A stretch of DNA of 26,156 bases, from assembly GCA_043803945.1 (NCBI GenBank), contig JAZDJN010000067.1, positions 1-26,156 on the forward strand, given 5' to 3'. The notes beneath the pieces were generated by a model that was not told where the DNA came from, did no database searches, and saw nothing but the letters and a program-made list of their open reading frames with translations. Each line of letters begins with the position of its first letter. Within the stretch, counting starts at the first letter, position 1. The translations under genes and the position numbers were made by a program. This DNA comes from a bacterium (GTDB taxonomy: Bacteria; Bacteroidota; Ignavibacteria; UBA10030). This document shows, piece by piece, positions 1,945 through 25,718 of the stretch.

Positions 1945-1951
1945 AGAGTCC

Positions 1952-2785: not shown

Positions 2786-2788
2786 TTC

Positions 2789-6231: not shown

Positions 6232-6327
6232 CTTCCATCGATATCGTAAGTGGACATTTCATCGGATTATTATAGCAACCCCTAGTAATGGGAGAAGTCC
6301 ATTTTTTTTTAAGTGAAAGGTAACTGT

Positions 6328-6735: not shown

Positions 6736-6814
6736 TATCCGTCCATTAAGTCAGAGTCAACAATGATTGCGACGGATAGAATACCATATAATTCAATTCA
6801 GAAAGGAGATCAGC

Positions 6815-7301: not shown

Positions 7302-10300
7302 ATGGTTAGGAGACGATCCATATCGCCAACGCAGGACCGAAGATCTGCCGCTACGCATCGCGAAGCGGTGTGGTTGATCGGATTGGTGTTGTCTCTCATT
7401 GAGAACTTGTTAGAACGATTCAGTCGGTCCACGACGCTATCGCGAAGATCACTCCTTCCGTTTGTGCTCCTCCTTTTCGTTTTAGGGATGACTGCAGAAG
7501 CGCTTGGACAAGCAGTATTCCAGGCGAATGCTGGCGGTGGTCTCTGGAATAATTCGGGGACATGGACACTTGCCTCTGGAACAGATGCCGACGGGATACC
7601 CGATGCCGATGATCAGGTAACAATTGCCGGAGGAAATCTTGCAGTCACGCTGAATGGAAATGAGGCGTGTTCATCGTTGCTGGTGCAAAACACTGGGGCG
7701 AATAGCACTTCCACCAGACTCGAGATCGGTTCTTATACGCTTGCAGTCGCGGGCAATGTTACAATTACGGGGGGTGGTGGCAATGGATCCAAGATAGCAC
7801 AGATCAATGTCGGCAATGGTATCTTAATCGTTAGCGGTAATCTCACGATCAGCGCAGTAAAAGGCAGTGAATTAAATCTTAATCTTGGCACCAGCACTCT
7901 GAATATAAGCGGCAGCATGACCGGAGGAACCAATGCCGTGTTAAATGCCGGAACTGCCAGCACAGTCAACCTGAATGGAACGAGTGCACAGACTCTCAAT
8001 CTCGTCGATTTTATTTTTGCCAACGTCACTCTCAATAATTCTGCCGGAGTAACAGCAAATGCAGCCATCACCGCAACAAATATCACCGGCGACCTTCGTG
8101 TAGAAACCGGCACCTTCGCAAGCGGTGGATTTGCCATCGCCGGAAATGGAGCAAAAACTTTCGAAGTAGCCGGCAACGCTTCGTTCATCACCACGACAGT
8201 CAACCCATCGGCTTTTCCAACAGGATTCTCAATCTCGTTGAATGCCAACAGCACCGTCGACTATGCCGGACTCACGGGAACGACGCAGACCGTATCAGAC
8301 CAGACCTATGGAAATCTCAAGCTCTCCGGTGGAGGCACCAAGTCGGCCGGAAGTGCTATTAGTGTTGCAGGGACACTCACGCAGACAGAAGCAACAACTA
8401 CAGCAACTCTCTCAGGGACAACAGGACACGATCTTACAGTCGGAAAATTCGACCTTCAGGCAGGTTCGTTTAATGATAATGGCCGCACCATTACAGTTAC
8501 AGGAACAGGTTCTGCAGTCTGGACGAAAGCAGGCACCTTTAACCCAACCGGCACCACAATCTTTACCGGTGCGGCGCCACAAATAGGCGCTTCGAATTTT
8601 GCAGCCCTTCAAATCAACGTTGGGTCAGGGAATAGTGCTCTAGCCAATGGTATCCTAACGGTTACTAACTTTGCACTCTTGTCCGGTACTTTTAATCCGG
8701 GCCTCTTCGCTCATACGATCTCAACGAATTTTTCTTTAGGCAGCGGCAGTACCCTTCTGGTACGCACTGCATTATTTACCGGCAATTACAGCAAAAATCC
8801 GACAAGTGTAGCTAATGGCAGTACCGTGGATTATCAGGGGACTAATAGCTCGCTGGCCAACTTTACTCATTCGAATCTCATTGTGAGCGGCAGTATCACC
8901 GGCAGTTCAAATGCAACAGTCGATGGTGCCTTTACCGTGACCGGTTCGTTCACCCCAAGTGTTGGTGCGGTGCGTTTAGGCAACTCTACCATTGTCAATT
9001 CAGGAACCCTGCAGTTCAGAGGTCTTGAACTTACGGCAGGTGCCTTTGTTCAGAGTTCGAGCAATTTCTTGATCGATAGTGCAATGACACTCCTGAGTGG
9101 CGCTTCATTTAGTCCCACAGGAACAATCACTCTGAACAACGGTGTCACGCTGGCAAACGCTGGAACGATGATCTTCCATAATCTCACGCTCAACAGCGGT
9201 GCACTTATTGCGAACACCGATTACTCCGTGAATGGAACCCTGAGCGGTGCCGGAACATTCAACGCCACTGCTGGAACAGTGACCTTCGGTAATTTATCCT
9301 CGTTAACAATTAGCGGCCTTTCTTTCCAGAATCTGACATTCAGCGGCGCGGTTACCGCAAATGTCGATATGACAGTGAAAGGTACGTTGACCATCGGTGG
9401 CGCCGGAGTCTTCAATCCTTCCTCGGGAACCGTCACCATTCCCGCAGGCGGCAGCATCGTCAACAGTGGAAGTCTCTCATTCAATAATCTGAATACCAGC
9501 GGCACCGGTTCGGTGACGATGAATACAAGCTTCACGCTGAAAAACTCTTTCACGAATATGTCTACAATTACCATTAATCAGACGTCAGGAGTTCTGACCA
9601 CTATCAGCGGTGCTTCGATCAACAATTCGGGATCTCTCACGCTGAGCAATGTTACTATTGGCGGGACCACAACTGCCAATGGAACAGTGACTGTAAACGG
9701 TGCTGTAACGCTGAATGGAAATCTGACAGTGTCTGGCGGTGCACTGATTATGGGAAGCAGTGCGACGACAAATGGAACATTTGATATCATCGGAGGAGTG
9801 CGGCGCGGAGGATTTATTATCGGCACTACATATTCCTTTGGCAACCCATTCACGACGCTCACATTCGATACAGGCGGAACACTCCCCGACTCCATCACCT
9901 ATACGATCCAGATTGGAAGCGCTCCGGTTGAAAAGACCGATGCGGTCCAGAGGTCTTATTCGATCGCCATTCTCAACGGTTCCGGATATTCTGCCTCGTT
10001 CCATCTGCACTATCGTCATGGAGAGCTCAATGGGAACTCAGAGAGTGCGATGTATCTGTACAGAAAGAACGGATCGGTATATCAACCAGCCGGTCGAAGC
10101 GCATTCAATACAACCGATGATTGGATAGGACTGAATAATGTCTCAACGATTGCGGGCGATTGGGCTATTGCAAATAAACCGGCTCACATCTTTACCGCTA
10201 GTAACGATGGTGCGTGGAACAATCCGGCGACGTGGGGTCTCTCCGGAACGCCTTCCGAAGGTGAAACGTACCCCGGGCCGGTCGACAGTGCATATATCGG

Positions 10301-13300
10301 CAATGATTTTGAGGTAGCGCTTACGGGAAATCACTCTGCGTACTTCGTATCAGTCAATGCGCCAGGCAATTCTGGAACAACATTACTCGATATCGGAACA
10401 TTTTCCCTGAGTATCGGAGGTACAGGCCTGAATATTGAGGGAAATGATGCCGATGATCGCATTGCACGCGTACGCGTTGCAGGCGGAACACTGTCGGTAT
10501 CGGATAACATTCGTTTTATTGCAAGCACCGATGCCAGGGTCGTACTGGACATCAGCTCCGGTGCGAGTACACTTAATATCGGGCGTGCGATGGTAAAGAA
10601 CACTGCCGGAACGTTCTCTCCCGGCATCTCAAGCACTGTCGTGTTCAATGGTTCATCCGCCCAATCGATTAATCTCTCGGGCTTCACGTATGCCAATGTG
10701 ACGGTGAATAATAACGCCGGAATCTCACTGCTTGGAAATGTGACGTCGGCTAACATAGCCGGAAATCTTCGTGTAGTGGGTGGCACACTCAATAACAATG
10801 GATACTCTATAAATGGAGATCCTCTCAAGACATTTGAAGTAGCAAACGGCGCAACGTTTATTCTCGGTTCTACCTCGGCATTTCCAACCGGGTTTGGGAC
10901 GGTCTCACTCGGAGCGACAAGTACCGTCAACTATAACGGTACCAATCAGACAATTAGTGAAGAGTTATATGGAAATCTGACACTCGGTGGGAGCGGCAGC
11001 AAGACGATCCAATCGCCGCTTGCCATCCAGAGAACACTCCATCAGACAGGAACTACAACCTCGTCGCTTTCCTCGACTTCAGGGTACGATATCATTGTCG
11101 GGAAGGTTTTGATTGACGGAGGAACCTTTATTGACAACGGTCGCACGATCGAGGTTACCGGAACCGGATCCGGAACATGGACAAAAACGGGTGGGACATA
11201 TACAGCAAACGGCACCACGGTATTTTCCGGCAGTGCACCGGAGATCGGGGCATCGAATTTTAGCACGCTCCAAATCTATGTCGGATCCGGAAATGTTGCA
11301 ACTGCTGTTGGTGCATTGACTCCGAATACTCTCACCCTGACGAGCGGAACATTTGATCCCGGATTGTACACCCACACAGTAAGCTCAAACCTCTCTATCG
11401 AGGGGGGATCAAAATTGTTAGTTCGCTCAGCATTGTACAGTGGAAATTACTCCCTCATTCCCACTATGATTCAATCGGGCAGTACGATAGAATATACAGC
11501 TACAGGTGCAACGGTTGCCGCTGTCTCACCGGAACAGTATGAGAATCTCACAATCAGCGGCACAGTCACGGGTGCTTCTACTGCCACTGTCAACAGTACG
11601 TTCCTGGTCTCCGGAACGTTTACACCATCGGGTGGGACGATTACTTTCGGAAACGGGTCATCGCTTAGCGGTACAGGTACTACGCAATTTTCAAGTCTCT
11701 CCATTGCAAATAGCGCAACGGTCACGGCATCAAATGTCTTTAGCGTTGGTGGAACATTGTCCGTCGGCTCGGGAGCAAGCTTCTCTCCCTCGAACACGGT
11801 GACTCTGAACAGCGCCACGATCGTAAACTCAGGAACGCTCACATTCCAAAATGTTTCGCTTATCGGTACGGTCACTGCGAACACCAGCTTTACGCTTAGT
11901 GGATCGATGTCGGGTGCCGGTACTCTGAATGCAACCAGCGGGACAATCACCTTCGGTAACGGATCATCACTCGCAACAAGCGGGAGTGTCTCCTTCAATA
12001 ATCTGACCATCAATGGTACCGTTGTAGCGAACACTTCGTTTGGTGTGAAAGGGACGTTAAGTGTTAATGCAGGTGGTGTTCTTAATCCTACGAGCGGCAC
12101 TGTTACCCTGTCGAATGGAAGCAGTATCAGTAACAGCGGTACTCTCTCATTCAAAAACCTTAGCAGCAGTGGTACAGTCAACATCAACTCAAACTTTACA
12201 CTCAAAGGAACCTTTACTAACACCGGTACGATTAATCAGACCTCGGGGATATTCTCGACGGCCGCCGGCGCAGTGATGAATAACAGTGGTACGTTATCGC
12301 TCAACAACCTTACAATCGGCGGTGCAACCACATTGAACGATAATGCAACTGTGAGTGGTACTCTGACCCTGGACGCGAATCTTACGGTGGTTGGAGATTC
12401 ACTAACAATGTCTTCCAGCGCAGTTACCGGTGGAACCGCTGATGTCATCGGCAGAATCCGTCGTACGCCCTTCACAACGGGTACGGCATATACGTTCGGT
12501 AATCAGTATACGACGATCACCTTCAATAGTGCAACCGTACTGCCGAGTTCAATTGTTGTGAAGGCCGCGATCGGTTCCTCCCCGATTGAAAAATCCGACG
12601 CTGTCCACCGGTACTACGAGATTACCGAAACGGGAGGAAGCGGATTTAATGCGACGCTCCGGCTGCATTATCTCGACTCCGAATTGAATTCAAACTCGGA
12701 GGGAATACTCTCACTCTGGAAAAAGAGCGGTACCACGTATGTCGAGGAAGGAAATATTTCTCGAGATCAGACCGCGAATTGGATTGAGCAATCTGCTGTC
12801 GATACGCTGACGACAACCTGGACGCTGGCAGTTGAGACGCCGACTGGATTCACAGCGGCCACAGACGGTTTCTGGGATGCGCCTGCAACCTGGGGTCTCA
12901 CCGGCACTCCGCAAGAGGGCGTGAACTACCCCGGTGTCAACGACAATGTCAACATCAGTAATAACTATACTGTCACGCTCCGTGCCAACCAGTCGGCAAA
13001 GAAAATTATCTTGGTCTCTGCCGGCGCAAATGGTACGTCAACATTGGCTGTCGGTTCGTATACACTTACTGTAGGCACAGGAGGAATCGAACTTCGCGGC
13101 GGCCGCCAGAACGGACGAAAAGTTCTGATCACGGTCGGCGGTGGTATTCTGAATATTGCGGGGAACATCTTTATCGATGCCAAATCAATCGCGCAGGCTC
13201 AAATTGATCTGACTGGGGGAGTCGGTAGCCGAATAAATATTACGGGAGATATTTCGCGGAATGACGACAACGACGGAGCGTTAACATTCAATTCTACCGG

Positions 13301-16300
13301 TATTATCAATTTCAATGGAACATCCGGCGGCCAGACTCTCGATGTTACCGGATCAATCTATGCAAATATTTATCTCAATAATACTTCGAGCGCAGGTGTC
13401 GTACTCGATGGCGCAATCACGACGGTAAATGTTATCGGCGATATTCGTTTACAATCTGGTACTTTTAATACCAATGGATTCGCAAATGCGGGGAATACCG
13501 GTAAAACGTTTGAACTCACAAATGGCACAACGCTCTACCTCTCCGGTGTGAGTACTTTCCCCACCGGTTTCACTCCATCGATCGGAAGTACCAGTACAAT
13601 CAATTATAGCGGTGGTGCCCAGACCATCTCCGATCAGGCCTATGGACATCTGACACTGAGTGGAACCGGTGCCAAAACTATCAACTCCTCCATCAGTGTT
13701 ACAGGCAACTTTACTTATTCCGCAACTGCCACAACCTCACTCTCTGCGACCGCCGGACAGAACCTGACCGCCAGCATGTTTACACTGTCGGCTGGTACGT
13801 TTATCGATAGTGGTCGAACAATCACCGTGACAGGTACTGGTGGACAAGTTTGGACAAAAACGGGCGGTACTTTCACAGCGACAGGTATTGTGAATATTAC
13901 CGGAGCGGCAGCGCAAATCGGATCCTCGAATTTTGCCACACTCAGTATCAACGTCGGCATTGGAAATACGGCTCTCGCGAATGGTGCGTTGAGCACCGCC
14001 ACCTTTACCCTCACGACGGGCGCGTTTGATCCGGGCACGCATACACACACCATCTCCGGATCATTTACGGTTGGTGATGGAACAACACTTCTGGTACGCA
14101 CAACAACGTTTCCCGGAAACTATAGTTCTAATCCCACCACTCAGCCCGGAAGTATTATCGAATATACCAATGCGGCCGCTTCGATCAGTAATGCGTTCAC
14201 CTATCGCAATCTGAAAATTTCCGGTAACGTTACCGGGGCAGCATCGGCAACAGTGATCGAACAATTTATCGTGTCAGGCTCGTTTACACCTGCCACGGGC
14301 AAGATGATCTTTAATAATGGTGCATCGATTGTCAATAGCGGTGCTGTAACATTCCGCAAACTACAAATATCGAATAGCGCGACAGTCACTACCGCAAGTT
14401 CCTTCAGCATCACCGATTCATTGATCGTGGGACAAAATGCCATCTTCCAGCCGTCCGGGACTGTCTCCTTTGTAACAAGCGGTTCCATCGATGTCAACCC
14501 TACATTGTTGAACGAGGGCATCCTGACATTTAATAATCTCTCAATTTCAGCGCCTGTGCATACCTCCTCATCGTTCACGATCGGAGGCACATTGGACATT
14601 CTCGTGAACGGCGAATTGAATCCAACCGGAGGCACGACAACGATGACAGGCGGTTCGTCGATCGTAAACTCCTGGATTCTTTCCTTCTATAAATTGCGCA
14701 TTACAGGTTCGGTCACGGCGAATACCAACTTCAGTGTCAAGGATTCACTCATCGTCAGTGCATCTGGTACATTGCAGCAGACAAGCGGTACGGTGACCCT
14801 GGAGAATGGTGCCAAAGTTGGCAACAGCGGATCGCTCACATTCTACACCTTATCCATTGCGGGCGCAGTGTCTGCCAATACCAGTTTTTCTATTGCATCT
14901 TCACTCTCAGTCACTTCCTCAGGAAATCTTACTTCGACGGCAGGAACTGTGACGATGAACAGCGGTACTTCCATTTCCAATCTTGGTACACTCAATCTGA
15001 ATAATCTGACGATTGCAGGCGGGACCATTACGGGGAATAATAACTTCTCCATGCAAGGCGTCTTGCAATTGGATGGAAATTTAGCAATGGGCTCGAATAC
15101 ATTCGAGTTTGGCAGCACAGCAACTAGTGGTGGAACTGGAGATGTGACTGGAAGAGTAAAACGTGCTCACGTATTTACTGCTTCCACAGCGTACGCATTC
15201 GGCAGTCAGTATACAACGGTAACATTCACATCGCTCACATCAGCACCTGGATCGATAACTATCAATATCATCAAAGGGTCTACACCGCCGGAAAAAGTGG
15301 ATGCCATTCAACGGTACTATGATATTACAAGTTCGGGTGGAACGTATGCCGCAACATTGCGTCTCCGCTATCTGACAGGCGAGCTCAACGGCAATGATGC
15401 ATCAACACTATCACTCTGGGCCAAAGTCGGTGTGAGTTCCTATGCCGATTCAGGGAAAACCACTAATGATCTGGTAAATAATTGGGTGGAAGATGCCGGC
15501 ATCACGTCGATTGTAGGCACCTGGACGCTCTCCCGGCAAAATCCAATCGGCTTCACCGCTGTTGCAACCGGAAATTGGAATGACCCGGCAACCTGGGGAC
15601 GGAGTGGTATACCGACAGAAGGAGTGAATTATCCCGGTCCGAGCGATAGCGCCAACATCATCAACAACGTGACGGTAACACTCACGGGTAATCATTCTGC
15701 CAAGAACCTCCGGGTGGAAGCTCCAACGCTCGATGGAACTTCTCGGTTGGATGTCGGCGCTTACACATTGAATGTCGGATCGAGCGGATTGAAGATAGCA
15801 GGCGGAACCTCCGATGCGAGGATTGCCACAGTGACGATAGCAAGTGGTAAGATTTCCGTCCTTGGAGATGTGACGTTACAGGGAAGCAGTGCAGTACGGT
15901 CCGTTCTCGACATGAGCCTGGGTGCAAACAGCATTCTGGAAGTTGGTGGATCGCTCTCGAAATCCGGATCGCCGACATTTACTCCGGGCAGTTCAGGCAT
16001 TGTGAACTTCAATGGAACCACAGCCGGACAGATCGTCAATGTTACGAGCTTCGTGTATACCAACCTTCGATTGAATAATACCAGCGGATCCGGCGTTACC
16101 TTAAGTGCTGCGATAACAGGAACGAACGTCACCGGTGACGTTCGAGTCCAAAGCGGCATTTTCACGAACAGCGGCTATGCAATTACAGGAAATAGCGGGA
16201 AGACGTTTGAAGTCGCGAACGGTGCGTCGTTCTATCTCACCGGAAGCAGTGCCTTCCCGACCGGATTTGGATCGATCTCTCTAGGTTCCACAAGCACGGT

Positions 16301-19300
16301 AAATTACAGCGGAGGGAGCCAGAGCATTTCCAACCAGTCGTATGGAAACCTTACCCTGAGCGGAACCGGAAATCACAACATCACTTCCTCGCTCTCTGCC
16401 GCAGGCACATTAACCTACTCCAGTTCCGGTGCAACATCGCTTTCCGGAACAGCGGGACACAACGTAACGGCAGCAAAGTTCAACCAGACATCCGGTACGT
16501 TCAATGTTAATAGCAGGACGATTACCATTACGGGAACCGGTGCAAGTACATGGTCAAAGACTGGCGGTACCTTTGCTGCTACCGGTGAGGTGATCTTTAC
16601 CGGTTCAGCTCCGGAAATTGGTGCATCGAATTTCGATCTCTTGCGTATCAACCTTGCTTCCGGCGGCGTTGCCACAGCAACGGGAATCTTGTCCGCGACG
16701 AATTTTTACCTCACATCAGGAACGTTTGATCCCGGTACGTCGCTTCACACCATTACAACAAACTTTACACTTGCCGCTGGAACAACAATGAAGGTGAAAA
16801 CCTCAACGTTTGGCGGTAACTACTCGAAAGCACCGACGACAATTACGACTGGTTCTACGATTGAGTATACAAATACGACTTCGACTCTTGCGACGCTCAC
16901 CTCGCCGACCTACTCAAATCTCAAAGTGAGCGGAACGGTTACAGGATCTTCAATCGCTTCGATTAACGACACCTTAATCGTGAGCGGCACCGTTATCAAT
17001 CCGGGTGGCACAATAACGCTGAACAACGGCGGACGAATCCGCGTCGACGGTGGAAGTCTCACCTTCACCAACCTTACGACTGCTGCAAGTGCAACGGCGG
17101 GATCGGCATCAAACTTTGCTGTGGCCGGTACTCTGACGGTTGGCGCTGCGAGCACCGCATCCTTCACCGGAACTGTGACGATGAATGGCGGTTCGATAAT
17201 CTCCAACACCTCGGGAGCCCTGACCTTTGGTACACTTTCAATTTCCGGAACGGTCACAGCGAATACGAACTACACGATTTCTACCGCCCTCTCCGTTGGA
17301 TTGAGTGGTGTGCTGAGTCCCACAAGCGGCACCGTGATCTTCAGCAATACATCTTCGATAACGAATCAGGGAGTCCTCGAGCTATATGACGCGACATTTA
17401 GCGGTATAACCTCGACCTCTTCGAATTTCTCCGTGAAGAATGCGTTCAGCGTTTCAGCAAGCAGCAGCTTTGCGGCTTCGGGCGGGACAGTCTCAATGCT
17501 CAGCAGTTCCTCCATTACGAATTCCGGTACACTGACATTCTCTGGTTTGCGCATTGACGCCGGCACGGTAACCTCTTCGAGCAGCTTCAGTATCTCAGGC
17601 TTATTGACCGTTGCATCCGGAGCGACCTTCAATCCTGCGGCTCCCTGTACGATTACAATGAACAATGGCGCCTCAATCACGCGCGATGGAACATCAACAT
17701 TCACCAACCTTGCGATAGCTGCCGGAACGGTAACGGGAAATACCAACCTCGCTGTCAGTGGAACACTGACACTCAACGGCACCCTTGCAATGGGATCGAA
17801 TATCCTCGATCTCACGGCGGCTACTGCGGCAATTGCCGGAACCGGAGATGTAACGGGTAATGTCCGCCGTCAGCACGCGTTTGCATCCTCAACTTCGTAT
17901 GCGTTTGGCAATCAGTTTACGACACTCAACTTCGCGAGCGGCACGTTGCCGACTTCGATCACGTTCACGATAGCGCTCGGAACAGCTCCGGCGGAAAAGA
18001 CCGATGCCATCCAAAGAAAATATTCCGTCAGCGTGACTGGTGGCTCAGGATACTCTGCAACTCTTCGCCTCCATTATCTGGACACCGAGCTGAATGGAAA
18101 TACGAGTTCAACACTGACACTCTGGAATAAGTCAGGAGCATCATATGCCGATCAGGGCAGGACCGGCTCGGTGGATGAAACGAATAAGTGGGTCGAGAAA
18201 GCATCACTGACCTCATTGATTGGCGATTGGACGCTGGCCAATCAACCCTCGGTGGGATTTACAGCAACGGTGACTGGTAATTGGAATACCCCTGCAACAT
18301 GGAGTCTTACCGGTTCTCCGCAGGAGGGTGTGAACTATCCGGGTCCGACGGACATCGTAAATGTTAATGGTGGTTTCACCGTTACCTTGACGGCAAACCA
18401 CTCGGCACAGCGGGTGAATATCACCGGTACGATCGCAGGAGCTGCAATAATCAATGTTGGTGCGAATACACTCAGCGTCGGCAGCGGAGGGATCACACTT
18501 ACCGGCGGAAGTACCGATGCAAGGTACGCCTGCATCAACGTCGATGGTGGAACTCTCAATGTGACAGGCAATATTGTTTATTCGACAGGAATAGCAGCGA
18601 GGGCGGTCGTAAATCTGGGAGGTGTTGGAGGATCTGCAGCGAGCACAATGAATCTCGGCGGTGTGATGTCCAAGAGTACTGCCGGCACATTCACACCAGG
18701 TAGTGCCAGCGTTGTGAACTATAACAGCTCGGCGCTCAATCAAACGGTCGATGTCATCAACTTTACGTACGCCAACCTGCATATCAATAATATGAATGCA
18801 TCGGGTGCCTCACTCAACGCTGCAGTCACGGCAGTAAATGTGACCGGCAACCTGCGTGTCCAATCGGGACAATTCTCGAACAGCGGTTTTGGGATTGCAG
18901 GGAATCCCACTATGACATTGGAGGTTGCAGCGGGTGCGACATTGAAGCTCACCGGAACATCAACGTTCCCGACTGGATTCGGAACGATCTCGTTGAATGC
19001 CGCCAGTACAGTAGAATATAATGGCGGGGCTCAGACTGTTACCAACCAATCGTACGGAAATCTCATCCTCTCCGGCAATGGAAGTAAGACAATTGCCTCA
19101 GCACTGAACGTCGGAGGGCGGTTCACATATAATAGTTCTGCGGCAACTTCATTAGCCGCGGGCGGATTAACTACTTCGAAATTTACACTGGCTTCCGGAA
19201 CCTTCTCAGCAAACAGCGCAAAGATTACAGTCACTGGAACCGGCGACAGCGTATGGATAAAATCGGGCGGGACATTTACAGCAACTGGTAAAGTGAGTTT

Positions 19301-21998
19301 CATAGGAGCGCTGCCGCAAATCTATTCCTCCAATTTTGATACGCTCGAAATTGCCGTTGGAGCAAGCGGACGCGCAGTTGCCTCGGGCATCCTCAGCTCT
19401 TCGCAAATGTTCTTAACGACCGGCACATACGATCCGGGTGTGTTCGGACATACGATCGTCAATAACTTTATTCTCTCTAATGGCACAACGTTGCTGGTTC
19501 GGGGTGCAGAATTTGTAACGAATTACAGCAAGGTCCCGACGAATGTCGGTGCATCCAGTGCCGTTGAGTATAGCAGTAGTGCAATCCAGACGATCAACTC
19601 GACATTTACGTATGGGAAACTTCGACTCGAGGGCGGCGGCTCCAACGCGAAAAGCGCAGGTGGAGCATTGACGGTGTTGGATAGTACGATCATCAGTTCA
19701 GGCTCGACGTTTAACGGTGTATCGTACAACCATCGGATACGCGGAACCTGGAGGAATGAAGGTACCTACGTCTCCAGCACGGGCACCATCACACTTAATG
19801 GAACTGCTGCACAAACGATCGCCGGAACGAGTGCCACCTCCTTCAATAATCTGGTGATGAACAATACCGCAGGTTTAACGATCAGCACAAGTCCCACCGT
19901 CATCGGTACCTTGACCTTCACGAGTGGCACGATCAACACTGGATCGAACAAGATTACCATTGCTGCGTCGGGAGTAGTGTCACGGACCAGCGGTCATGTA
20001 GTCGGCAACTTCGAAAAATATATTGCCGCCGGTGCAACCACCAGGACATTCGAGATTGGCGATGCAACGAATTATACTCCTGCACAGATTGCTTTTTCGA
20101 GTGTCTCCACAGGTGGCTACCTCACCGCCCGCACAGACCCTGGAGATCATGCCGATATCGCGAACTCTGGAATTGATCCTGCCCTCAGTATCAACCGGAC
20201 ATGGACAGTGACAAATAACGGAATCAGCTTCACGACGTATGGTGCGACATTTACATTCGTTCCGGGTGATCTCGATGGCGGTGTTGTTACGGGTGACATT
20301 GTTCTTGCCAAACTGGATGGCATAACCTGGACCAGCCCGACGATGGGTACTGTTACAGCGACGACTATGCAGGCGACAGGGATTACTGGCTTCAGCAAAT
20401 TCCAGGGGGGCAATCCGAGTGTTGCCGATTTCACCTCGATCACAACAGGCAATTGGAATTCCGCTTCGACCTGGGATAAAAATAGAGTCCCGAAGAAAAA
20501 TGATAGAGTCACCATTGCGGCATCGCACACAGTAACGTTGACGGATGCCAGGGAGATAACAAATTTGAGCGTGGCTGCTACTGGTGAATTTGCCATTGGC
20601 ACAAATACGCTGACCGTTTGGGGCAATATTATCCTGAATGGAACCTGGAGCGGCAGCGGTATGATCGATTGGAGAAACAACGGTACATCACTGGGTGGCA
20701 CCGGCACGACGAGCGGCACGCCCATGCTTCAGGCCAATGGCGATAAATCCATTGATGTTTCTGCAACCCTCACACTCTTCCGCATTGATATACCTGCTGC
20801 AAACGCCGTGACAAATAACGGGGCAATTCAGCTTACACGCCTGACAGGCGGGGTTGCGGGGTCTACCTGGATCAATGCCGCTGGTTCAAGCTTATCAGTT
20901 ATTCAAGATCTTCTGACAACCGGTACACTCACGACCCTTGGTGTGGGGAATACACTCACCTACAGTGGTAACACGGCACAGACGGTTAAAGCTATCACAT
21001 ATCAGAATATTGCATTCAGCGGTTCAGGTACTAAAACTCTTTCTGCCGATCTGACTGTACAGGGAGATTTCATAAACTCGTCAACGGTATCAGTCGGAAC
21101 ACATTCATTGTCTATAAGTGGTACAAGGACAAACTCCGGAACAGTCCAGTTTGCGGGGGCGGCGAATGGAGTGCTCTTTACGGATGGTACGGTAGAGTAT
21201 AACGGCACGAGTGTTACTCAAACAATTGCGAGCGGTATATACAACAACCTCACACTCAGCGGATCGGTAGGAAAGACTGCCGGCGGCGATGTAACTGTTA
21301 ATGGGAATTTCAACAACTCCGTTACGACTTCGGTAGGCAATTCTCTTCTTGTAATATCCGGTACGAAGACAAATAGTGGCACAATGCAATTTGCCGGTGC
21401 GAGTAATGGCATCTTGTTCGCAGATGGCACAGTTGAATACAACGGAACTACTTTAGCACAAACAATCACCATCGGGACGTATAATAATCTCACACTCAGC
21501 GGCACAACCTCTAAAGCAATTCCGGCAGGGACATTAGGGATTGCTGGAATATTCACGGTATCGGGAGTCTCTGTCGATGCTACATCGAATAATTCGACGA
21601 TAGACTATTTTGGCAATGGCGCTCAGTCTATTGCCGCAATCGCCTATCATCATCTGACACTGAGAAATAGCGGAACTAAAACTTTTTCCTCAGGGACAAC
21701 TTACATCGGTGGTAACCTAACGATCAGCGCTCCTGCCGCTGCCAATGCAACGACAAATTCGTCAACGATTGAGTATAACGGTACAACGAGCCAGTCAATT
21801 GCCGGTATGACGTACCATCTGCTCAACTTCTCAGGCAGCGGATTAAAAACTCTTTCAGCAACGATGACTGTAAACTCTCACCTGACTGTCAATGCAGGTG
21901 CATCTGTGCTGGTCACCAACACAGGTCTTATCAATCTTCAGGGTGATTTGTTGAATGATGGATATTTCAGAAATGATGGAACGATAATTCCATTTTAG
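7302..21998 (+). CDS. Giant secreted repeat protein (4898 aa), predicted beta-helix/beta-sandwich modular adhesin or filament terminal subunit
   Basis: Uninterrupted 14.7-kb ORF. Hydrophobic signal region ends ALG|Q (Q at 7509); the exact start is uncertain. Thr/Ser/Gly/Asn-rich. Six G8-like W-x-x-x-x-T-W...P...D-x-V-x-I heads and recurring Y-x-G-x-x-Q...Y-x-x-L-x-LSG-x-G-x-K motifs. Confidence 0.9.
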   Translation: MVRRRSISPTQDRRSAATHREAVWLIGLVLSLIENLLERFSRSTTLSRRSLLPFVLLLFVLGMTAEALGQAVFQANAGGGLWNNSGTWTLASGTDADGIPDADDQVTIAGGNLAVTLNGNEACSSLLVQNTGANSTSTRLEIGSYTLAVAGNVTITGGGGNGSKIAQINVGNGILIVSGNLTISAVKGSELNLNLGTSTLNISGSMTGGTNAVLNAGTASTVNLNGTSAQTLNLVDFIFANVTLNNSAGVTANAAITATNITGDLRVETGTFASGGFAIAGNGAKTFEVAGNASFITTTVNPSAFPTGFSISLNANSTVDYAGLTGTTQTVSDQTYGNLKLSGGGTKSAGSAISVAGTLTQTEATTTATLSGTTGHDLTVGKFDLQAGSFNDNGRTITVTGTGSAVWTKAGTFNPTGTTIFTGAAPQIGASNFAALQINVGSGNSALANGILTVTNFALLSGTFNPGLFAHTISTNFSLGSGSTLLVRTALFTGNYSKNPTSVANGSTVDYQGTNSSLANFTHSNLIVSGSITGSSNATVDGAFTVTGSFTPSVGAVRLGNSTIVNSGTLQFRGLELTAGAFVQSSSNFLIDSAMTLLSGASFSPTGTITLNNGVTLANAGTMIFHNLTLNSGALIANTDYSVNGTLSGAGTFNATAGTVTFGNLSSLTISGLSFQNLTFSGAVTANVDMTVKGTLTIGGAGVFNPSSGTVTIPAGGSIVNSGSLSFNNLNTSGTGSVTMNTSFTLKNSFTNMSTITINQTSGVLTTISGASINNSGSLTLSNVTIGGTTTANGTVTVNGAVTLNGNLTVSGGALIMGSSATTNGTFDIIGGVRRGGFIIGTTYSFGNPFTTLTFDTGGTLPDSITYTIQIGSAPVEKTDAVQRSYSIAILNGSGYSASFHLHYRHGELNGNSESAMYLYRKNGSVYQPAGRSAFNTTDDWIGLNNVSTIAGDWAIANKPAHIFTASNDGAWNNPATWGLSGTPSEGETYPGPVDSAYIGNDFEVALTGNHSAYFVSVNAPGNSGTTLLDIGTFSLSIGGTGLNIEGNDADDRIARVRVAGGTLSVSDNIRFIASTDARVVLDISSGASTLNIGRAMVKNTAGTFSPGISSTVVFNGSSAQSINLSGFTYANVTVNNNAGISLLGNVTSANIAGNLRVVGGTLNNNGYSINGDPLKTFEVANGATFILGSTSAFPTGFGTVSLGATSTVNYNGTNQTISEELYGNLTLGGSGSKTIQSPLAIQRTLHQTGTTTSSLSSTSGYDIIVGKVLIDGGTFIDNGRTIEVTGTGSGTWTKTGGTYTANGTTVFSGSAPEIGASNFSTLQIYVGSGNVATAVGALTPNTLTLTSGTFDPGLYTHTVSSNLSIEGGSKLLVRSALYSGNYSLIPTMIQSGSTIEYTATGATVAAVSPEQYENLTISGTVTGASTATVNSTFLVSGTFTPSGGTITFGNGSSLSGTGTTQFSSLSIANSATVTASNVFSVGGTLSVGSGASFSPSNTVTLNSATIVNSGTLTFQNVSLIGTVTANTSFTLSGSMSGAGTLNATSGTITFGNGSSLATSGSVSFNNLTINGTVVANTSFGVKGTLSVNAGGVLNPTSGTVTLSNGSSISNSGTLSFKNLSSSGTVNINSNFTLKGTFTNTGTINQTSGIFSTAAGAVMNNSGTLSLNNLTIGGATTLNDNATVSGTLTLDANLTVVGDSLTMSSSAVTGGTADVIGRIRRTPFTTGTAYTFGNQYTTITFNSATVLPSSIVVKAAIGSSPIEKSDAVHRYYEITETGGSGFNATLRLHYLDSELNSNSEGILSLWKKSGTTYVEEGNISRDQTANWIEQSAVDTLTTTWTLAVETPTGFTAATDGFWDAPATWGLTGTPQEGVNYPGVNDNVNISNNYTVTLRANQSAKKIILVSAGANGTSTLAVGSYTLTVGTGGIELRGGRQNGRKVLITVGGGILNIAGNIFIDAKSIAQAQIDLTGGVGSRINITGDISRNDDNDGALTFNSTGIINFNGTSGGQTLDVTGSIYANIYLNNTSSAGVVLDGAITTVNVIGDIRLQSGTFNTNGFANAGNTGKTFELTNGTTLYLSGVSTFPTGFTPSIGSTSTINYSGGAQTISDQAYGHLTLSGTGAKTINSSISVTGNFTYSATATTSLSATAGQNLTASMFTLSAGTFIDSGRTITVTGTGGQVWTKTGGTFTATGIVNITGAAAQIGSSNFATLSINVGIGNTALANGALSTATFTLTTGAFDPGTHTHTISGSFTVGDGTTLLVRTTTFPGNYSSNPTTQPGSIIEYTNAAASISNAFTYRNLKISGNVTGAASATVIEQFIVSGSFTPATGKMIFNNGASIVNSGAVTFRKLQISNSATVTTASSFSITDSLIVGQNAIFQPSGTVSFVTSGSIDVNPTLLNEGILTFNNLSISAPVHTSSSFTIGGTLDILVNGELNPTGGTTTMTGGSSIVNSWILSFYKLRITGSVTANTNFSVKDSLIVSASGTLQQTSGTVTLENGAKVGNSGSLTFYTLSIAGAVSANTSFSIASSLSVTSSGNLTSTAGTVTMNSGTSISNLGTLNLNNLTIAGGTITGNNNFSMQGVLQLDGNLAMGSNTFEFGSTATSGGTGDVTGRVKRAHVFTASTAYAFGSQYTTVTFTSLTSAPGSITINIIKGSTPPEKVDAIQRYYDITSSGGTYAATLRLRYLTGELNGNDASTLSLWAKVGVSSYADSGKTTNDLVNNWVEDAGITSIVGTWTLSRQNPIGFTAVATGNWNDPATWGRSGIPTEGVNYPGPSDSANIINNVTVTLTGNHSAKNLRVEAPTLDGTSRLDVGAYTLNVGSSGLKIAGGTSDARIATVTIASGKISVLGDVTLQGSSAVRSVLDMSLGANSILEVGGSLSKSGSPTFTPGSSGIVNFNGTTAGQIVNVTSFVYTNLRLNNTSGSGVTLSAAITGTNVTGDVRVQSGIFTNSGYAITGNSGKTFEVANGASFYLTGSSAFPTGFGSISLGSTSTVNYSGGSQSISNQSYGNLTLSGTGNHNITSSLSAAGTLTYSSSGATSLSGTAGHNVTAAKFNQTSGTFNVNSRTITITGTGASTWSKTGGTFAATGEVIFTGSAPEIGASNFDLLRINLASGGVATATGILSATNFYLTSGTFDPGTSLHTITTNFTLAAGTTMKVKTSTFGGNYSKAPTTITTGSTIEYTNTTSTLATLTSPTYSNLKVSGTVTGSSIASINDTLIVSGTVINPGGTITLNNGGRIRVDGGSLTFTNLTTAASATAGSASNFAVAGTLTVGAASTASFTGTVTMNGGSIISNTSGALTFGTLSISGTVTANTNYTISTALSVGLSGVLSPTSGTVIFSNTSSITNQGVLELYDATFSGITSTSSNFSVKNAFSVSASSSFAASGGTVSMLSSSSITNSGTLTFSGLRIDAGTVTSSSSFSISGLLTVASGATFNPAAPCTITMNNGASITRDGTSTFTNLAIAAGTVTGNTNLAVSGTLTLNGTLAMGSNILDLTAATAAIAGTGDVTGNVRRQHAFASSTSYAFGNQFTTLNFASGTLPTSITFTIALGTAPAEKTDAIQRKYSVSVTGGSGYSATLRLHYLDTELNGNTSSTLTLWNKSGASYADQGRTGSVDETNKWVEKASLTSLIGDWTLANQPSVGFTATVTGNWNTPATWSLTGSPQEGVNYPGPTDIVNVNGGFTVTLTANHSAQRVNITGTIAGAAIINVGANTLSVGSGGITLTGGSTDARYACINVDGGTLNVTGNIVYSTGIAARAVVNLGGVGGSAASTMNLGGVMSKSTAGTFTPGSASVVNYNSSALNQTVDVINFTYANLHINNMNASGASLNAAVTAVNVTGNLRVQSGQFSNSGFGIAGNPTMTLEVAAGATLKLTGTSTFPTGFGTISLNAASTVEYNGGAQTVTNQSYGNLILSGNGSKTIASALNVGGRFTYNSSAATSLAAGGLTTSKFTLASGTFSANSAKITVTGTGDSVWIKSGGTFTATGKVSFIGALPQIYSSNFDTLEIAVGASGRAVASGILSSSQMFLTTGTYDPGVFGHTIVNNFILSNGTTLLVRGAEFVTNYSKVPTNVGASSAVEYSSSAIQTINSTFTYGKLRLEGGGSNAKSAGGALTVLDSTIISSGSTFNGVSYNHRIRGTWRNEGTYVSSTGTITLNGTAAQTIAGTSATSFNNLVMNNTAGLTISTSPTVIGTLTFTSGTINTGSNKITIAASGVVSRTSGHVVGNFEKYIAAGATTRTFEIGDATNYTPAQIAFSSVSTGGYLTARTDPGDHADIANSGIDPALSINRTWTVTNNGISFTTYGATFTFVPGDLDGGVVTGDIVLAKLDGITWTSPTMGTVTATTMQATGITGFSKFQGGNPSVADFTSITTGNWNSASTWDKNRVPKKNDRVTIAASHTVTLTDAREITNLSVAATGEFAIGTNTLTVWGNIILNGTWSGSGMIDWRNNGTSLGGTGTTSGTPMLQANGDKSIDVSATLTLFRIDIPAANAVTNNGAIQLTRLTGGVAGSTWINAAGSSLSVIQDLLTTGTLTTLGVGNTLTYSGNTAQTVKAITYQNIAFSGSGTKTLSADLTVQGDFINSSTVSVGTHSLSISGTRTNSGTVQFAGAANGVLFTDGTVEYNGTSVTQTIASGIYNNLTLSGSVGKTAGGDVTVNGNFNNSVTTSVGNSLLVISGTKTNSGTMQFAGASNGILFADGTVEYNGTTLAQTITIGTYNNLTLSGTTSKAIPAGTLGIAGIFTVSGVSVDATSNNSTIDYFGNGAQSIAAIAYHHLTLRNSGTKTFSSGTTYIGGNLTISAPAAANATTNSSTIEYNGTTSQSIAGMTYHLLNFSGSGLKTLSATMTVNSHLTVNAGASVLVTNTGLINLQGDLLNDGYFRNDGTIIPF
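7518..20429 (+). repeat. Five diverged tandem protein modules within the giant ORF
   Basis: Module heads at 7518 (FQANAGGGLWNNSGTW), 10191 (FTASNDGAWNNPATW), 12849 (FTAATDGFWDAPATW), 15552 (FTAVATGNWNDPATW) and 18258 (FTATVTGNWNTPATW), with a sixth head at 20430 (FTSITTGNWNSASTW). Spacings are 891, 886, 901, 902 and 724 aa. Confidence 0.9.
21000..21479 (+). repeat. Tandem 240-bp (80-aa) duplication in the C-terminal region of the giant ORF
   Basis: ISGTRTNSGTVQFAGAANGVLFTDGTVEYNGT versus ISGTKTNSGTMQFAGASNGILFADGTVEYNGT. Unit-initial Tyr codons fall at 21000, 21240 and 21480. Confidence 0.85.
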
Positions 21999-22070
21999 GT
22001 GATCGAACTATGAAAAAAGAATTTGAGATCAACTCATATGAATAGATTCATTACGGAGAGGAGTACTTCC

Positions 22071-23462
22071 ATGAAAACCTTCTTATCTCACAGAGTGAGC
22101 AAAGCAACCCCATTGTTTTTGTTGCTCACACTTGCTCTAAAAGTGGGATTCGCACAAGGAGTATTGAAGAATAACGGTACGTTCGTTAACACCGGTACCT
22201 CGACTTATACCCGGATTGAAAATTTCAAGACATCAGCAGGAACAATTCTCAATTCGGGTACGCTGAACAGCACCACGACATTTCTCAATCAAAGCGGTGG
22301 ATTAAACGGAAAAGTACTCAATTATATTGGCTCGGGTGGTGGGACGATTAATGTCACCACTAATCTCGATAACAACGCAGCCGGAGCGATCTTTGATAAT
22401 GATAGTCTGACACTTTCAACGGTATTGCGTGTTGGTGGATCCATTACGAATGCAGGGACATTCGATACAGACACAGGGAAAGTAGAGTACAATGGAGCCG
22501 GTGTGCAGACTATTATTGCTACAACGTATGGGGCTCTCGTCACGAGCAATGCAAGCGCGAAATCAATTGCCTCTGGAACGACGACCGTGAGGGATTCCAT
22601 ACGTATCGCCGGTTCGTCAAGCATCGTAACGAGTACTAATACTCTTTCTTTTAGTGGAGCGACTTTTACACTGCAAGGAACAGGCGCCCTGGATGCATCG
22701 TCCGGTACAGTGAATTATTCCGGTGACCGAGACCAGCAGATTATCGCCGGTACATACGGCACACTGATCACTTCCGGCTCAACGACTGCAAGAACGAAGA
22801 CAGCCACCGGTAATGTGACACTCAGTGCTTCCGGTTCCCTGACAGTGGGGAACAATGATACTCTCAGTGTAACAGGGAATCTGAATCTTTCCGCTGCGGG
22901 TGTGACGCTAACGAATAACAATGTCATCAAGATGGGTGGTAATGCGACATTTGTTGGTACGATTACTAGTGTCGGGTCATTCTACTATGCCGGTTCGGGT
23001 TCACAGAACATTGGTACAAATACTTACGCAACTCTTCGGCTGGGTGGCAGCAGCACAAAGACATTTCCTAACGGGACTGTGGCAGTCACGAGTAATTATA
23101 CGATTGACAATGGGAGTGGCAGCCGGGATTACACTTCCAATACGAGCACCTTCCAATTTGCAGGAACCAGCGGTACACAGACGATCTCCGGGCTCTCCGA
23201 AACATTTTACATACTTCAGTTTGCCGGTGCGGCCACGAAACCGATTTCAGGGACATCGCTTGGAGCGGCACGGCTTGATATTCTCGCCACCAGCGGGCTC
23301 GTCACGAATAACGTAACCACGATGACGTTGACTAATATTTCTAACATTAGCATGACGGTAGCTTCTGGAGCATCATTCCAGAACAACCAGGCGATTTTAT
23401 TTAACGGTGATATCGAAAACGATGGAGTCTTTACAAACGCAGGTACGGTTACAGCTAACTAA
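22071..23462 (+). CDS. Secreted beta-helix repeat protein related to the C-terminal region of the giant protein
   Basis: ATG 22071 follows GAGGAG (22058-22063); signal peptide ends GFA|Q. Repeats VEYNGAGVQTIIATTYGAL, VNYSGDRDQQIIAGTYGTL and YYAGSGSQNIGTNTYATL. Ends GDIENDGVFTNAGTVTAN. Confidence 0.85.
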   Translation: MKTFLSHRVSKATPLFLLLTLALKVGFAQGVLKNNGTFVNTGTSTYTRIENFKTSAGTILNSGTLNSTTTFLNQSGGLNGKVLNYIGSGGGTINVTTNLDNNAAGAIFDNDSLTLSTVLRVGGSITNAGTFDTDTGKVEYNGAGVQTIIATTYGALVTSNASAKSIASGTTTVRDSIRIAGSSSIVTSTNTLSFSGATFTLQGTGALDASSGTVNYSGDRDQQIIAGTYGTLITSGSTTARTKTATGNVTLSASGSLTVGNNDTLSVTGNLNLSAAGVTLTNNNVIKMGGNATFVGTITSVGSFYYAGSGSQNIGTNTYATLRLGGSSTKTFPNGTVAVTSNYTIDNGSGSRDYTSNTSTFQFAGTSGTQTISGLSETFYILQFAGAATKPISGTSLGAARLDILATSGLVTNNVTTMTLTNISNISMTVASGASFQNNQAILFNGDIENDGVFTNAGTVTAN

Positions 23463-23467
23463 CGATG

Positions 23468-23754
23468 AACATTCACAACAATATGAAAGGAGGTTCCTAT
23501 GCGAACCGATCAATGCAGACCGCCTTAGGTCAAGGGGAGTCAGCTTCAGCGTTGCTCTCTGAGCAAGAGCAATGTATCTATTCACTATTAATTATTTACT
23601 CGCCTAAAGGTAACGCATGGCGGGCAAGCTATTCACAATTTCAAAAGGAGCTACAACAATGTCGTACAAACAAGAAACACCACAGGGAAAAAGCAACAAG
23701 CATTCACAATTCACCCACAATTCACAAACACATTCTAAAAGGAGTACAGTCATG
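23468..23754 (+). promoter_or_regulatory. Leader region with three ATTCACAA...AAAGGAG...ATG units
   Basis: Units end in ATG at 23499, 23659 and 23752, each 7-8 nt after an AAAGGAG. ATTCACAA or close variants occur at 23471, 23580, 23631, 23702 and 23720. Confidence 0.55.
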
Positions 23755-25377
23755 AATACCAAGTCAATCATCGCAGCCATCGTTACCCTCTTCTTAATCG
23801 TCGGAGTGGCATCTGGACAAAAAATCAAGAACAAATCAACATTTACCAACAATGGTATAATGTCTGTAGGGACGTTCCAGAATTATAATGGAGCTGCTGG
23901 TACATTGGACAACAATAATGGAGCAACCCTCACAGTCTCGGCGCTTCTAGATAACAAGTATAACGCAGCCACAGTCAATAACCTGGGTACGATCACTATG
24001 ACAGGGGCAAGTACATTTGATAATAGTTTGTCAGGTGGAATCGTCTCCAACACAAGTAACGGTCTAATCAACATGTCAGGTGCCACCAGTGTTTATGATA
24101 ACACAGCTGGAACTACAACAAATTCTACCACAGCAGCGGGTAAGGGATTCAGGTTTGTAAATGCAGCTGGAGGGGCATTAGTGCCAGGTTCGGGTTTCAC
24201 AACTTCCTCGGGTAGAGTTGAATATGCCGGTACGGGTGGAACAGTCTATTCAGGAGTTGCAACTGGTACATATGGTAAACTCGAAATTAACACATCAGGA
24301 ACACGAACGATGGATAACTCAATCTCTGTGGGAGATGTGACCCTGACTGCCGGAACCTTCGATGTCGGTAGTGGCTATAAGTTGACAGTAACAGGGGTTG
24401 GAGGGGTAGCAGGAGCTGGTGCTTTGACAGCTAATGGGAGTACGACCACTGAGGTTGATTATGCAGGTCCCGATGGACAACCGATTAAATCTACTACGTA
24501 TGCAAAACTGACTCTGAGTGGTGCTGGCACACGACAAAAGACGATCAGTGGCGATGTGACCGTTGCTAATGCACTTAAAATCGATGCGGGTAATGAACTT
24601 CTTATTCCTGAGACCCCATCTCTCTATACCCTAACACTCAACAGCAGTTCAGTCCTGGACAACTCAGGTTGGGTTCGTATTTATGGCGACATTTCTTTTG
24701 GATCCTCGATGACTCTCACAGCCATTGGTTCATTTGAGTATGGACGAGTAGCTGCAGGTCAAGTTGTAAAGCCATTTTCATATGCTAATTTGACTTTGTC
24801 GGCTGGAGCAAAAACGATGGGTGTCGCTCCTGCTGATGCGATCTCAGTTTCTGGTACATATAATGCAGGCGCAACGGCTGATTATCGCAGCAACACAACG
24901 TCATTCACTTATGCAGGCGGTGGTGCCCAAGATGTCCGTGCCGGTAACTACTATACTTTAGCGATGACGACGGGGGGAGCAAAGTCGATTGGAGCAGGCG
25001 TTGCTGTTGAAGCAAAAACTGTTACAGTTGCCACTGGTGCTCTTACTATTGATGGAACAGGGTCATTACAAGTTGGCTATACTGGACAAAATGGAAGCAT
25101 GTCGATTTCGAGCAACTTCACTAATAATGGTGACTTAACACTCGGACACAACAATGCTTCACCGACATTTTATGCATCCCTCACGTTCTCTGGTGCAACT
25201 CTTACGAATAACTTAAACATAAGAGTATTTGGCAGTGATGCGTTGGGAACGTACTTCTTACAGAACGATGCAACAACTGAATTAGTCAACAGTGCTACGG
25301 GCGTCATTGCATTAAAGGCTGCGGATTTTGTGAACAATGCTTCATTTTCGAATGCTGGCAGTATCACGGTTGAATAG
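23752..25377 (+). CDS. Secreted beta-helix repeat protein, candidate major filament subunit
   Basis: ATG 23752 follows AAAAGGAG and gives a canonical signal peptide MNTKSIIAAIVTLFLIVGVASG|Q. Repeats VEYAGTGG...YGKLEI, VDYAGPDGQPIKSTTYAKLTLSG and FTYAGGGAQDVRAGNYYTL. Ends ADFVNNASFSNAGSITVE. Confidence 0.85.
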   Translation: MNTKSIIAAIVTLFLIVGVASGQKIKNKSTFTNNGIMSVGTFQNYNGAAGTLDNNNGATLTVSALLDNKYNAATVNNLGTITMTGASTFDNSLSGGIVSNTSNGLINMSGATSVYDNTAGTTTNSTTAAGKGFRFVNAAGGALVPGSGFTTSSGRVEYAGTGGTVYSGVATGTYGKLEINTSGTRTMDNSISVGDVTLTAGTFDVGSGYKLTVTGVGGVAGAGALTANGSTTTEVDYAGPDGQPIKSTTYAKLTLSGAGTRQKTISGDVTVANALKIDAGNELLIPETPSLYTLTLNSSSVLDNSGWVRIYGDISFGSSMTLTAIGSFEYGRVAAGQVVKPFSYANLTLSAGAKTMGVAPADAISVSGTYNAGATADYRSNTTSFTYAGGGAQDVRAGNYYTLAMTTGGAKSIGAGVAVEAKTVTVATGALTIDGTGSLQVGYTGQNGSMSISSNFTNNGDLTLGHNNASPTFYASLTFSGATLTNNLNIRVFGSDALGTYFLQNDATTELVNSATGVIALKAADFVNNASFSNAGSITVE

Positions 25378-25700: not shown

Positions 25701-25718
25701 TGTAGTCCGCCCATCCTG

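Follow-up and report, generated by a model that had tools for sequence, protein, structure and literature searches.

A C-terminal beta-helix rung in an uncharacterised Ignavibacteria protein family as a candidate docking face for end-to-end stacking

In a 26,156-bp stretch of DNA from a bacterium of the class Ignavibacteria (Bacteroidota; assembly GCA_043803945.1, contig JAZDJN010000067.1), which is a complete contig and is referred to here as the window, one giant and two small beta-helix proteins (P0001, P0002 and P0003) are encoded side by side, and each of them ends in an 18-residue motif that runs up to the stop codon. Comparison of homologues supports constraint on this terminus, in that relatives with 30-55% identity still carry the motif, with 0-4 residues between it and the stop. 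Structural modelling suggests that the 18 residues are the last full turn, made of three G-x-h-x-N-x hexads, of a right-handed triangular parallel beta-helix that has no capping element. The reading that we tentatively prefer is that the motif could be a docking face, left uncapped, on which a partner subunit would stack head to tail by its basic first rung. The rung-ended proteins form an uncharacterised family that matched no Pfam or NCBIfam model, and limited keyword searching of the literature found nothing relevant on the motif or on the family.

Conservation and distribution of the terminal rung

The three ends had been quoted with their positions in an earlier, sequence-only reading of the window, and translation reproduces them exactly, flush to the stop codons (Table 1). 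The consensus proposed there describes the pattern common to the three ends, but its F at motif position 9 and its [DA] at position 12 are not kept family-wide; the consensus of 30 family sequences is G-D-L-x-N-D-G-x-h-T-N-x-G-T-I-T-V-x-COOH, then 0-4 further residues. Used as a regular expression, the earlier consensus has three matches in the 8219 open reading frames (ORFs) of at least 100 amino acids in the whole genome (2,170,906 residues), all of them 3 residues ahead of the stop, against 6e-7 expected from composition, a circular test, as the pattern was derived from those same three sequences. A looser core, N-x-[GAS]-x-h-x-N-x-G-x-h, has 11 matches in the genome against about 4.9 expected, all within four ORFs, namely those of P0001, P0002 and P0003 and one on contig C65. 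The latter, a minus-strand ORF of 2069 amino acids in which the core lies close to the N-terminus (LKNNGTINNTGTI, residue 105), is the sole other ORF of the genome to contain it, and it carries a sub-threshold match (25.3 bits) to the C-terminal tail of the type IX secretion system (T9SS).

Judged by their alignments, the three proteins are paralogues over hundreds of residues, the end included, and not independent cases: P0002 aligns with residues 4603-4895 of P0001, motif included (E 3e-13), and with P0003 at 28% identity (E 5e-16). Because they are paralogues, their common register is not by itself evidence of selection, and the earlier argument from a fixed distance to the terminus in proteins of different size falls away, the end being shared by descent. 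Constraint on the terminus is supported by the homologues instead. Loss of the motif or of its distance to the stop in orthologues had been named beforehand as the contrary outcome, and the homologues of the small proteins keep the motif at their end: the rung is the ending in 52 of the 53 non-self homologues of P0002 (54 proteins returned; one of the 52 has one extra residue), the sole one without it, P0043, being a partial record, and in all six non-self homologues of P0003. Among the 26 non-self homologues of the giant, searched with its last 499 residues, eight end in the rung, seven carry PF18962, and the others end otherwise. The final residue is not conserved (F in P0001, N in P0002 and E in P0003; Y, N, Q or E, or GN, GP and others, in homologues). 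In a 37-sequence alignment of P0002, the last 18 residues rank second of 446 windows for conservation, with 3.39 bits against a mean of 2.89, and the first rung of the mature protein is third among the non-overlapping 18-residue windows.

The rung itself is not confined to C-termini. A hidden Markov model of the last 40 residues had been suggested as a way to find other C-terminal matches, and a profile of 40 positions built from C-terminal ends and searched against 1.84 billion representative proteins (E <= 0.001) found 152 proteins, of which the best 150 were re-scanned. Terminal matches do occur, in 44 of these 150 (no more than 6 residues from the end; one stretch per protein in the median), but in the other 106 the match is internal, with a median of 3.5 stretches per protein. 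The proteins with internal matches often end otherwise, in a hydrophobic helix plus basic tail (13 of the 106, by a crude pattern), in a T9SS-like end or in a terminal aromatic residue.

A similar division is seen within the phylum, where 22 of 401 sampled genomes have a match at E <= 1e-5: the window's own genome, 12 of 17 from its family, 4 of 10 from a second family of that order and 1 of 8 from a third, and four elsewhere, these four being the ones listed from other families. Loci were available for 30 of the 34 listed matches, and were examined; in 23 of them a stop follows within 0-4 residues, and these belong without exception to the window's family or to one sister family, and seven run on into more helix, including all four from outside the order. 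The terminal form is limited, in this sample, to the window's own order. Some ninety relatives from that order end directly behind the rung. Elsewhere the rung opens a repeat module that continues as x-[FY]-x-G-x-x-x-Q-x-I and so on. On these alignments, the element is a general type of rung, the start of the family's repeat module, and one Ignavibacteria-like order has proteins that end right after it.

A locus search with the single protein found two related loci. The relatives that bear a name come from metagenome-assembled genomes labelled Bacteroidota bacterium and Ignavibacterium album. In the genomes with at least two terminal matches (G000, G021, G035, G075, G183, G203 and G263), these lie a few kb apart on one contig; a giant and a small rung-ended gene stand together in G001 and G002, and in G021, G075, G183 and G263 a few kb contain two or three of middle size. 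A Pfam scan of 26 rung-ended proteins left 24 without any family, with one PATR match and one weak Amnionless match in the remainder, and Pfam and NCBIfam scans of P0001, P0002 and P0003 gave no family, only a sub-threshold Amnionless match in P0001. The protein atlas held no named relatives for P0004, the 463-residue form of P0002 (best score 0.88).

Table 1. Features of the window discussed in the text (aa, amino acids)
Feature	Position	Strand	Remarks
C-terminal rung of P0001	21942..21995	+	GDLLNDGYFRNDGTIIPF, then TAG; 19.6 bits in the 18-column profile
C-terminal rung of P0002	23406..23459	+	GDIENDGVFTNAGTVTAN, then TAA
C-terminal rung of P0003	25321..25374	+	ADFVNNASFSNAGSITVE, then TAG; most divergent of the three
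First rung of mature P0002	22155..22211	+	QGVLKNNGTFVNTGTSTYT; G-x-h-x-N-x hexads as in the C-terminal rung, yet basic, not acidic
First rung of mature P0003	23818..23874	+	QKIKNKSTFTNNGIMSVGT; net charge +3; strands directly after the signal helix in the model
Giant beta-helix protein P0001 (ORF)	7302..21998	+	4898 aa; real start possibly downstream of 7302
Small beta-helix protein P0002 (ORF)	22023..23462	+	479 aa
Small beta-helix protein P0003 (ORF)	23617..25377	+	586 aa
Two stand-alone response-regulator receiver genes	6313..7219	+	PF00072, E 1e-25 and 3e-24; directly upstream of the giant gene
Chaperone-usher-like cluster	353-5413	+	Three small DUF4402-like proteins, an ORF of about 270 aa, an 874-aa protein

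The modelled ends and readings of the rung

The small proteins likely start within their ORFs, P0002 at ATG 22071, giving 463 residues (P0004), and P0003 at ATG 23752, giving 541 (P0094); both starts agree with the database versions and have an AGGAG-type ribosome-binding site upstream. The signal peptide is probably cut before Q29 in P0002 and before Q23 in P0003. Q29 is almost invariant, and a passage of PMC5837995 describes Gln as the residue that cleavage by signal peptidase I as a rule exposes in Bacteroidetes, but not in the whole FCB (Fibrobacteres, Chlorobi and Bacteroidetes) group.

The AlphaFold2 model of P0002, computed with 37 sequences, is all-beta (predicted local distance difference test, pLDDT, 92.1; predicted template modelling score, pTM, 0.86). 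Its last strands, at 435-438, 441-444, 447-450, 453-456 and 459-462 of 463 residues, follow a period of 6, so that in the model the 18 residues of the motif are one complete three-sided turn of three 4-residue strands with no chain beyond it; at the other end the strands begin at residue 29, the first after the predicted signal-peptide cut. Both ends are alike in the P0003 model (18 sequences; pLDDT 78.3, pTM 0.78), with strands at 24-27, 30-33 and 36-44 at the start, and at 525-528, 531-534 and 537-540 of 541 at the end. The suspicion that the last rung is uncapped, raised in the sequence-only reading, is supported by both models, where period-6 strands run to the last residue and no cap is seen, as judged from secondary-structure strings and the list of interface residues. 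Foldseek found no match in the PDB at E <= 0.001. A wide structural search gave right-handed adhesin helices as best matches, with Vag8 (7akv_G) first (Z 14.6, root-mean-square deviation (rmsd) 4.6, 305 residues aligned), and TibA, Fap2, EtpA, HMW1 and Ag43b further on; residues 334-463 of the model align with the bactofilin BacA (2n3d; Z 9.5, rmsd 2.1, 99 aligned).

The two ends of these proteins resemble each other. With an 18-column rung profile, every full family member scores 10-33 bits at its C-terminus, and the next best match, where there is any, is usually the mature N-terminus, with 6-11 bits (e.g. GTLKNGGVFRNTGTVT). They differ in charge: the small proteins have an acidic last rung (D, E, D) and a basic first mature rung (K, R), and over 60 proteins the mean net charge is +1.97 for the first 19 mature residues and -2.47 for the last 18. 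Where the last rung is uncharged, as in six of the proteins, the first carries a charge of 0 to +1. An EF-hand-like calcium loop was considered as a possible reading of the D-x-E-x-D-G in the last rung.

Prediction of a homodimer from two copies of residues 29-463 of P0002 was run three times, with scores of 0.63, 0.66 and 0.00 (median 0.63) against 0.00 for the best of three controls, and with a partner pLDDT of at least 92. In calibration of the tool, 20 of 30 true one-chain pairs attained the mark, as did 1 of 23 single chains. The predicted interface comprises residues 425, 427, 432 and 444-462 of one copy and 29-47, 53 and 68 of the other, and the pairs of lowest error (453-37, 455-39, 456-40, 457-41, 458-42 and 460-44, an offset of about 416) we read as a roughly in-register stacking of the last rung on the first. 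In the register that we infer from this model, G446 would lie over G30, I448 over L32, E449 over K33, N450 over N34, G452 over G36, F454 over F38, N456 over N40 and G458 over G42.

The sequence-only reading had left two possibilities standing, a sorting signal and an uncapped polymerisation face, and it is the second that the uncapped models, the like N-terminal rung and the dimer score of 0.63 favour over the first. The free C-terminal rung would be the docking face, on which the first rung of another subunit would stack roughly in register, with Asn on Asn, Gly on Gly, hydrophobic on hydrophobic and acid against base, and the helix would continue across the subunit boundary. Small subunits could in this way polymerise head to tail, and might likewise lengthen or cap the giant P0001 at its C-terminus, where the last rung is acidic. 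That such a contact would form in the cell, that fibres would result, that the giant would take part and where the proteins would finally reside are all matters that we infer.

Several observations weigh against a docking face, and are the reason for our caution. Support for stacking is wholly computational, and the complex score is a measure of model confidence. One of the three complex runs gave 0.00, and the agreement between runs is reported as 'at least 0%' of contacts; our own alignment was used in the prediction, so that the calibration counts apply only roughly; and the controls were unrelated proteins rather than uncapped beta-helices, which leaves room for a general bias towards stacking solenoid ends. 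Charge covariation between the end rungs is weak (r = -0.14, n = 60), in a set of related sequences where some N-termini were wrongly guessed by script. The overhang past the rung varies (none, GN, GQ, GP, GY, SQ, P, PF or KVGL), and its compatibility with stacking is uncertain. Conservation of the C-terminal window exceeds the protein average only modestly. P0001 has no matching first rung and therefore cannot self-polymerise by end stacking. Finally, the proteins would have to cross the outer membrane without a T9SS domain.

The strongest rival is that the rung is a purely structural end, a tight Asn/Gly turn with a charged surface that resists fraying, has no partner and simply has nothing else appended to it. 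We regard this as somewhat unlikely. It would sit well with the rung as a truncated start of the internal repeat module, given its internal position in seven of the 30 genomic and 106 of the 150 best profile matches, and with the modest excess in conservation; a passage of PMC13288671 describes solenoid termini as prone to fraying and as stabilised by electrostatic capping motifs. What a structural end leaves unexplained is that the stop falls within 0-4 residues of the rung at 30-55% identity, that the first mature rung mirrors the last with opposite charge, and that the dimer prediction chose exactly these two rungs.

The alternative of a secretion or anchoring signal supposes that an outer-membrane component recognises the free last rung, for example by beta-strand augmentation, and exports the protein or holds it on the surface, in place of the T9SS domain. 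The proteins have Sec-type signal peptides, and P0001-P0003 lack a T9SS domain in a genome with 149 PF18962 matches elsewhere; the rung and PF18962 look like alternative endings in the giant homologues; the motif has a fixed position at the very terminus; and the window has, further upstream, a gene for an usher-like outer-membrane protein, with a similar arrangement upstream in G001. Yet the motif occurs on one homologous, Pfam-less family only, with no unrelated cargo domains seen in the 26 proteins scanned, and known sorting tags have diverse cargo. The rung is moreover integral to the fold and confidently modelled, not a separate domain or a tag on a linker, and it is also found internally in the genomic and profile matches given above; its last residue is not conserved, and there is neither a hydrophobic helix nor a basic tail. 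Nor is the usher-like cluster generally adjacent, as tblastn found it at one of 14 loci and there on another contig than the beta-helix genes. The new C-terminal sorting signal put forward in the sequence-only reading is, on this evidence, improbable. Shared ancestry alone, with the register a by-product of tandem duplication and the terminus free of constraint, would account for three tandem proteins paralogous over hundreds of residues up to the end, but is very improbable, being contradicted by the homologues: in at least 15 other genomes these retain both motif and stop position at 30-55% identity, and the terminal window is among the two most conserved of the alignment.

A docking face could belong to a larger structure, an undescribed extracellular fibre in which the giant would be the base or nucleator and small subunits would be added by charge-complementary stacking into one continuous polar helix, without a T9SS domain and under the control of the receiver pair; this fuller picture we consider doubtful. 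Were stacking true, the result would be a polar, electrostatically guided filament made of large folded helices instead of amyloid repeats, in a poorly studied lineage, and the combination of a rung flush to the stop with a matching rung right after the signal peptide would offer a sequence signature for finding subunits in metagenomes. The problem would also be raised of how proteins of up to 4900 residues leave the periplasm without a T9SS domain in a T9SS-rich bacterium. Should the rung be merely a stable helix end, the finding would still define an uncharacterised family and its boundaries.

Genomic neighbourhood

In the family, a giant is encoded next to one to three small paralogues, and a pair of receiver genes precedes them. 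Such receiver genes adjoin the beta-helix genes in loci L002 (340-1292) and L004 (15005-15942) and were found by tblastn in 9 of 12 further loci, and they may regulate the locus of the rung proteins. Pairs or triplets of these CheY-like receivers stand directly upstream of rung-ended genes in most loci examined, L037-L040 and L043-L046 included, and the best match to RR1 has 47-63% identity in most loci and 37% in L046.

In the chaperone-usher-like cluster at the start of the window, only the DUF4402-like protein at 1504-1944 is above the Pfam cut-off, and the ORF 1739-2785 probably has its real start near 1973. The atlas model of the 874-residue protein reaches template modelling scores of 0.53-0.54 with Usher-family (PF00577) clusters, one of the nearest clusters being automatically named FimD/PapC usher; a phmmer search of this ORF and of the 348-residue one against solved structures gave nothing at E <= 1. 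The usher-like protein was found by sequence in one of two related genomes, G002, on another contig, and the tblastn match to the cluster was at L005; in G001, the genes upstream of the locus have a similar arrangement, too divergent for a sequence match. The cluster was considered as a dedicated exporter of the rung proteins and dropped, as it is rarely detected near related loci.

The giant P0001 combines a signal-like hydrophobic stretch at its N-terminus with large internal repeats and the rung motif as ending. By eye it has about five super-repeats of some 900 residues each, most of which open with a W-x-x-P-A-T-W-type motif followed by 'hypothetical Ig-like' (immunoglobulin-like) segments (R-x-Y-x-I..., L-H-Y...). 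P0001 and the long form of P0002 lie in one reading frame, parted by a single TAG and eight sense codons (21996-22071). Read-through from one into the other was rejected, as P0002 has its own ribosome-binding site and signal peptide and the frames differ in L002, and the shared frame looks coincidental. Many database entries of the small proteins begin too far upstream (here at 22023-22070 and 23617-23751), and the peptide '...SKRS-x-VMN...' that they share is no protein but a translation of the ribosome-binding region (AAAAGGAGT...ATGAA).

The spacer past the last beta-helix gene (25378-26156), inside which the contig ends, is repeat-rich, with two 95-nucleotide direct repeats at 25719-25813 and 25884-25978 that are 84% identical and contain internal palindromes; at the corresponding place in L001 (11400-12900) and L002 (10700-12100), similar 'KVTF...RKVTF' peptides come from spurious ORFs. 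No Rfam family matched in the window, spacer included. In L001 and L002 the next downstream gene carries a T9SS-like tail. On contig C39 of G000 (3551-3778, minus strand) there is a T9SS tail in an open frame of 1740 amino acids, the same length as the T9SS-tailed protein after the locus in L001 and L002, and this contig may continue that of the window.

Relation to known systems

Among the endings by which bacteria sort their surface proteins, sortase- and exosortase-type signals (LPXTG, PEP-CTERM and similar) have, after a short motif, a hydrophobic helix and then a basic tail. In P0001-P0003 both the helix and the tail are absent, and the last 40 residues are polar and of beta-strand type. 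The C-terminal signal of outer-membrane beta-barrels has a conserved terminal aromatic residue and alternating hydrophobics, a pattern from which the rung departs in its varying last residue (F, N or E here; Y, N, Q, E or others in homologues). The T9SS C-terminal domain (PF18962, type A) is closer in that it likewise sits at the very C-terminus of large secreted Bacteroidota proteins and is the alternative ending in seven of the 26 giant homologues. It is, however, a compact Ig-like beta-sandwich, according to a section of PMC11285876, with a Pfam model of 75 positions against 18 residues of helix rung here, and P0001-P0003 have no PF18962 match at E <= 0.01, none of the 149 matches in the genome lying on the window's contig (C67).

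In their fold, the rung-ended proteins are most like the passengers of type V adhesins (Vag8, TibA, Ag43, EtpA, HMW1 and Fap2), long right-handed beta-helix surface proteins that match the model with Z 12.4-14.6 over 219-380 aligned residues, and some homologues are named 'fibronectin-binding autotransporter adhesin' in one source. Unlike these passengers, P0001-P0003 have no autotransporter barrel, two-partner secretion (TPS) domain or PATR repeat by Pfam. The classical type Va barrel (PF03797, 12-stranded) gave no Pfam match, the proteins ending in the helix rung instead. For the TPS domain there was no PF05860 match; the HMW1 secretion domain (2odl_A) aligns at Z 12.7 and rmsd 3.4 over 219 residues, as any right-handed helix would, and no TpsB-like gene was seen in a Pfam scan of the window. 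The self-association of Ag43 reportedly takes place between two molecules of neighbouring cells, not by an end-on continuation of the helix. A left-handed hexapeptide-repeat helix (PF00132) was also considered, since its period-6 strands look like those of the modelled ends, but was rejected with no Pfam match and with rmsd of 11.7-12.7 for LpxD/GlmU-type chains; right-handed helices align at 3.4-4.6, against about 12 for the left-handed hexapeptide enzymes.

The systems nearest to the proposed contact are those in which beta-solenoids stack by their ends. The rung-ended proteins may be such uncapped solenoids: neither of the two models shows a cap, and self-association is predicted (0.63 against 0.00 for the best control, with one run of three at 0.00). 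With bactofilins (BacA, TtBac) they share a triangular right-handed helix, rungs of about 18 residues and Gly at the corners. They differ from bactofilins, which are defined by the PF04519 domain and a cytoplasmic location, in having signal peptides and no Pfam match, with fold likeness only local, and in a predicted contact that is head to tail. With the curli subunit CsgA they would share the character of a Sec-exported solenoid with open ends. Unlike CsgA, they have no Curlin repeat by Pfam and match its fold weakly (8c50_A; Z 9.7, rmsd 9.8), and they are three-sided helices of 440-4900 residues, regular in their end rungs only; the window showed no csgG/E/F-like genes.

A passage of PMC10192328 describes how CsgA subunits stack head to tail by sheet augmentation, last repeat on first, into a continuous solenoid, and says that ordinary solenoids avoid end stacking through imperfect terminal motifs or blocking domains; bactofilin filaments, according to part of 10.1101/617639, form by end-to-end association of beta-helical domains. 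By analogy, the end-on stacking of open-ended beta-solenoids proposed here would have precedent in both curli and bactofilin and, if true, would be a third natural way, beside these two, of building filaments from beta-solenoids.

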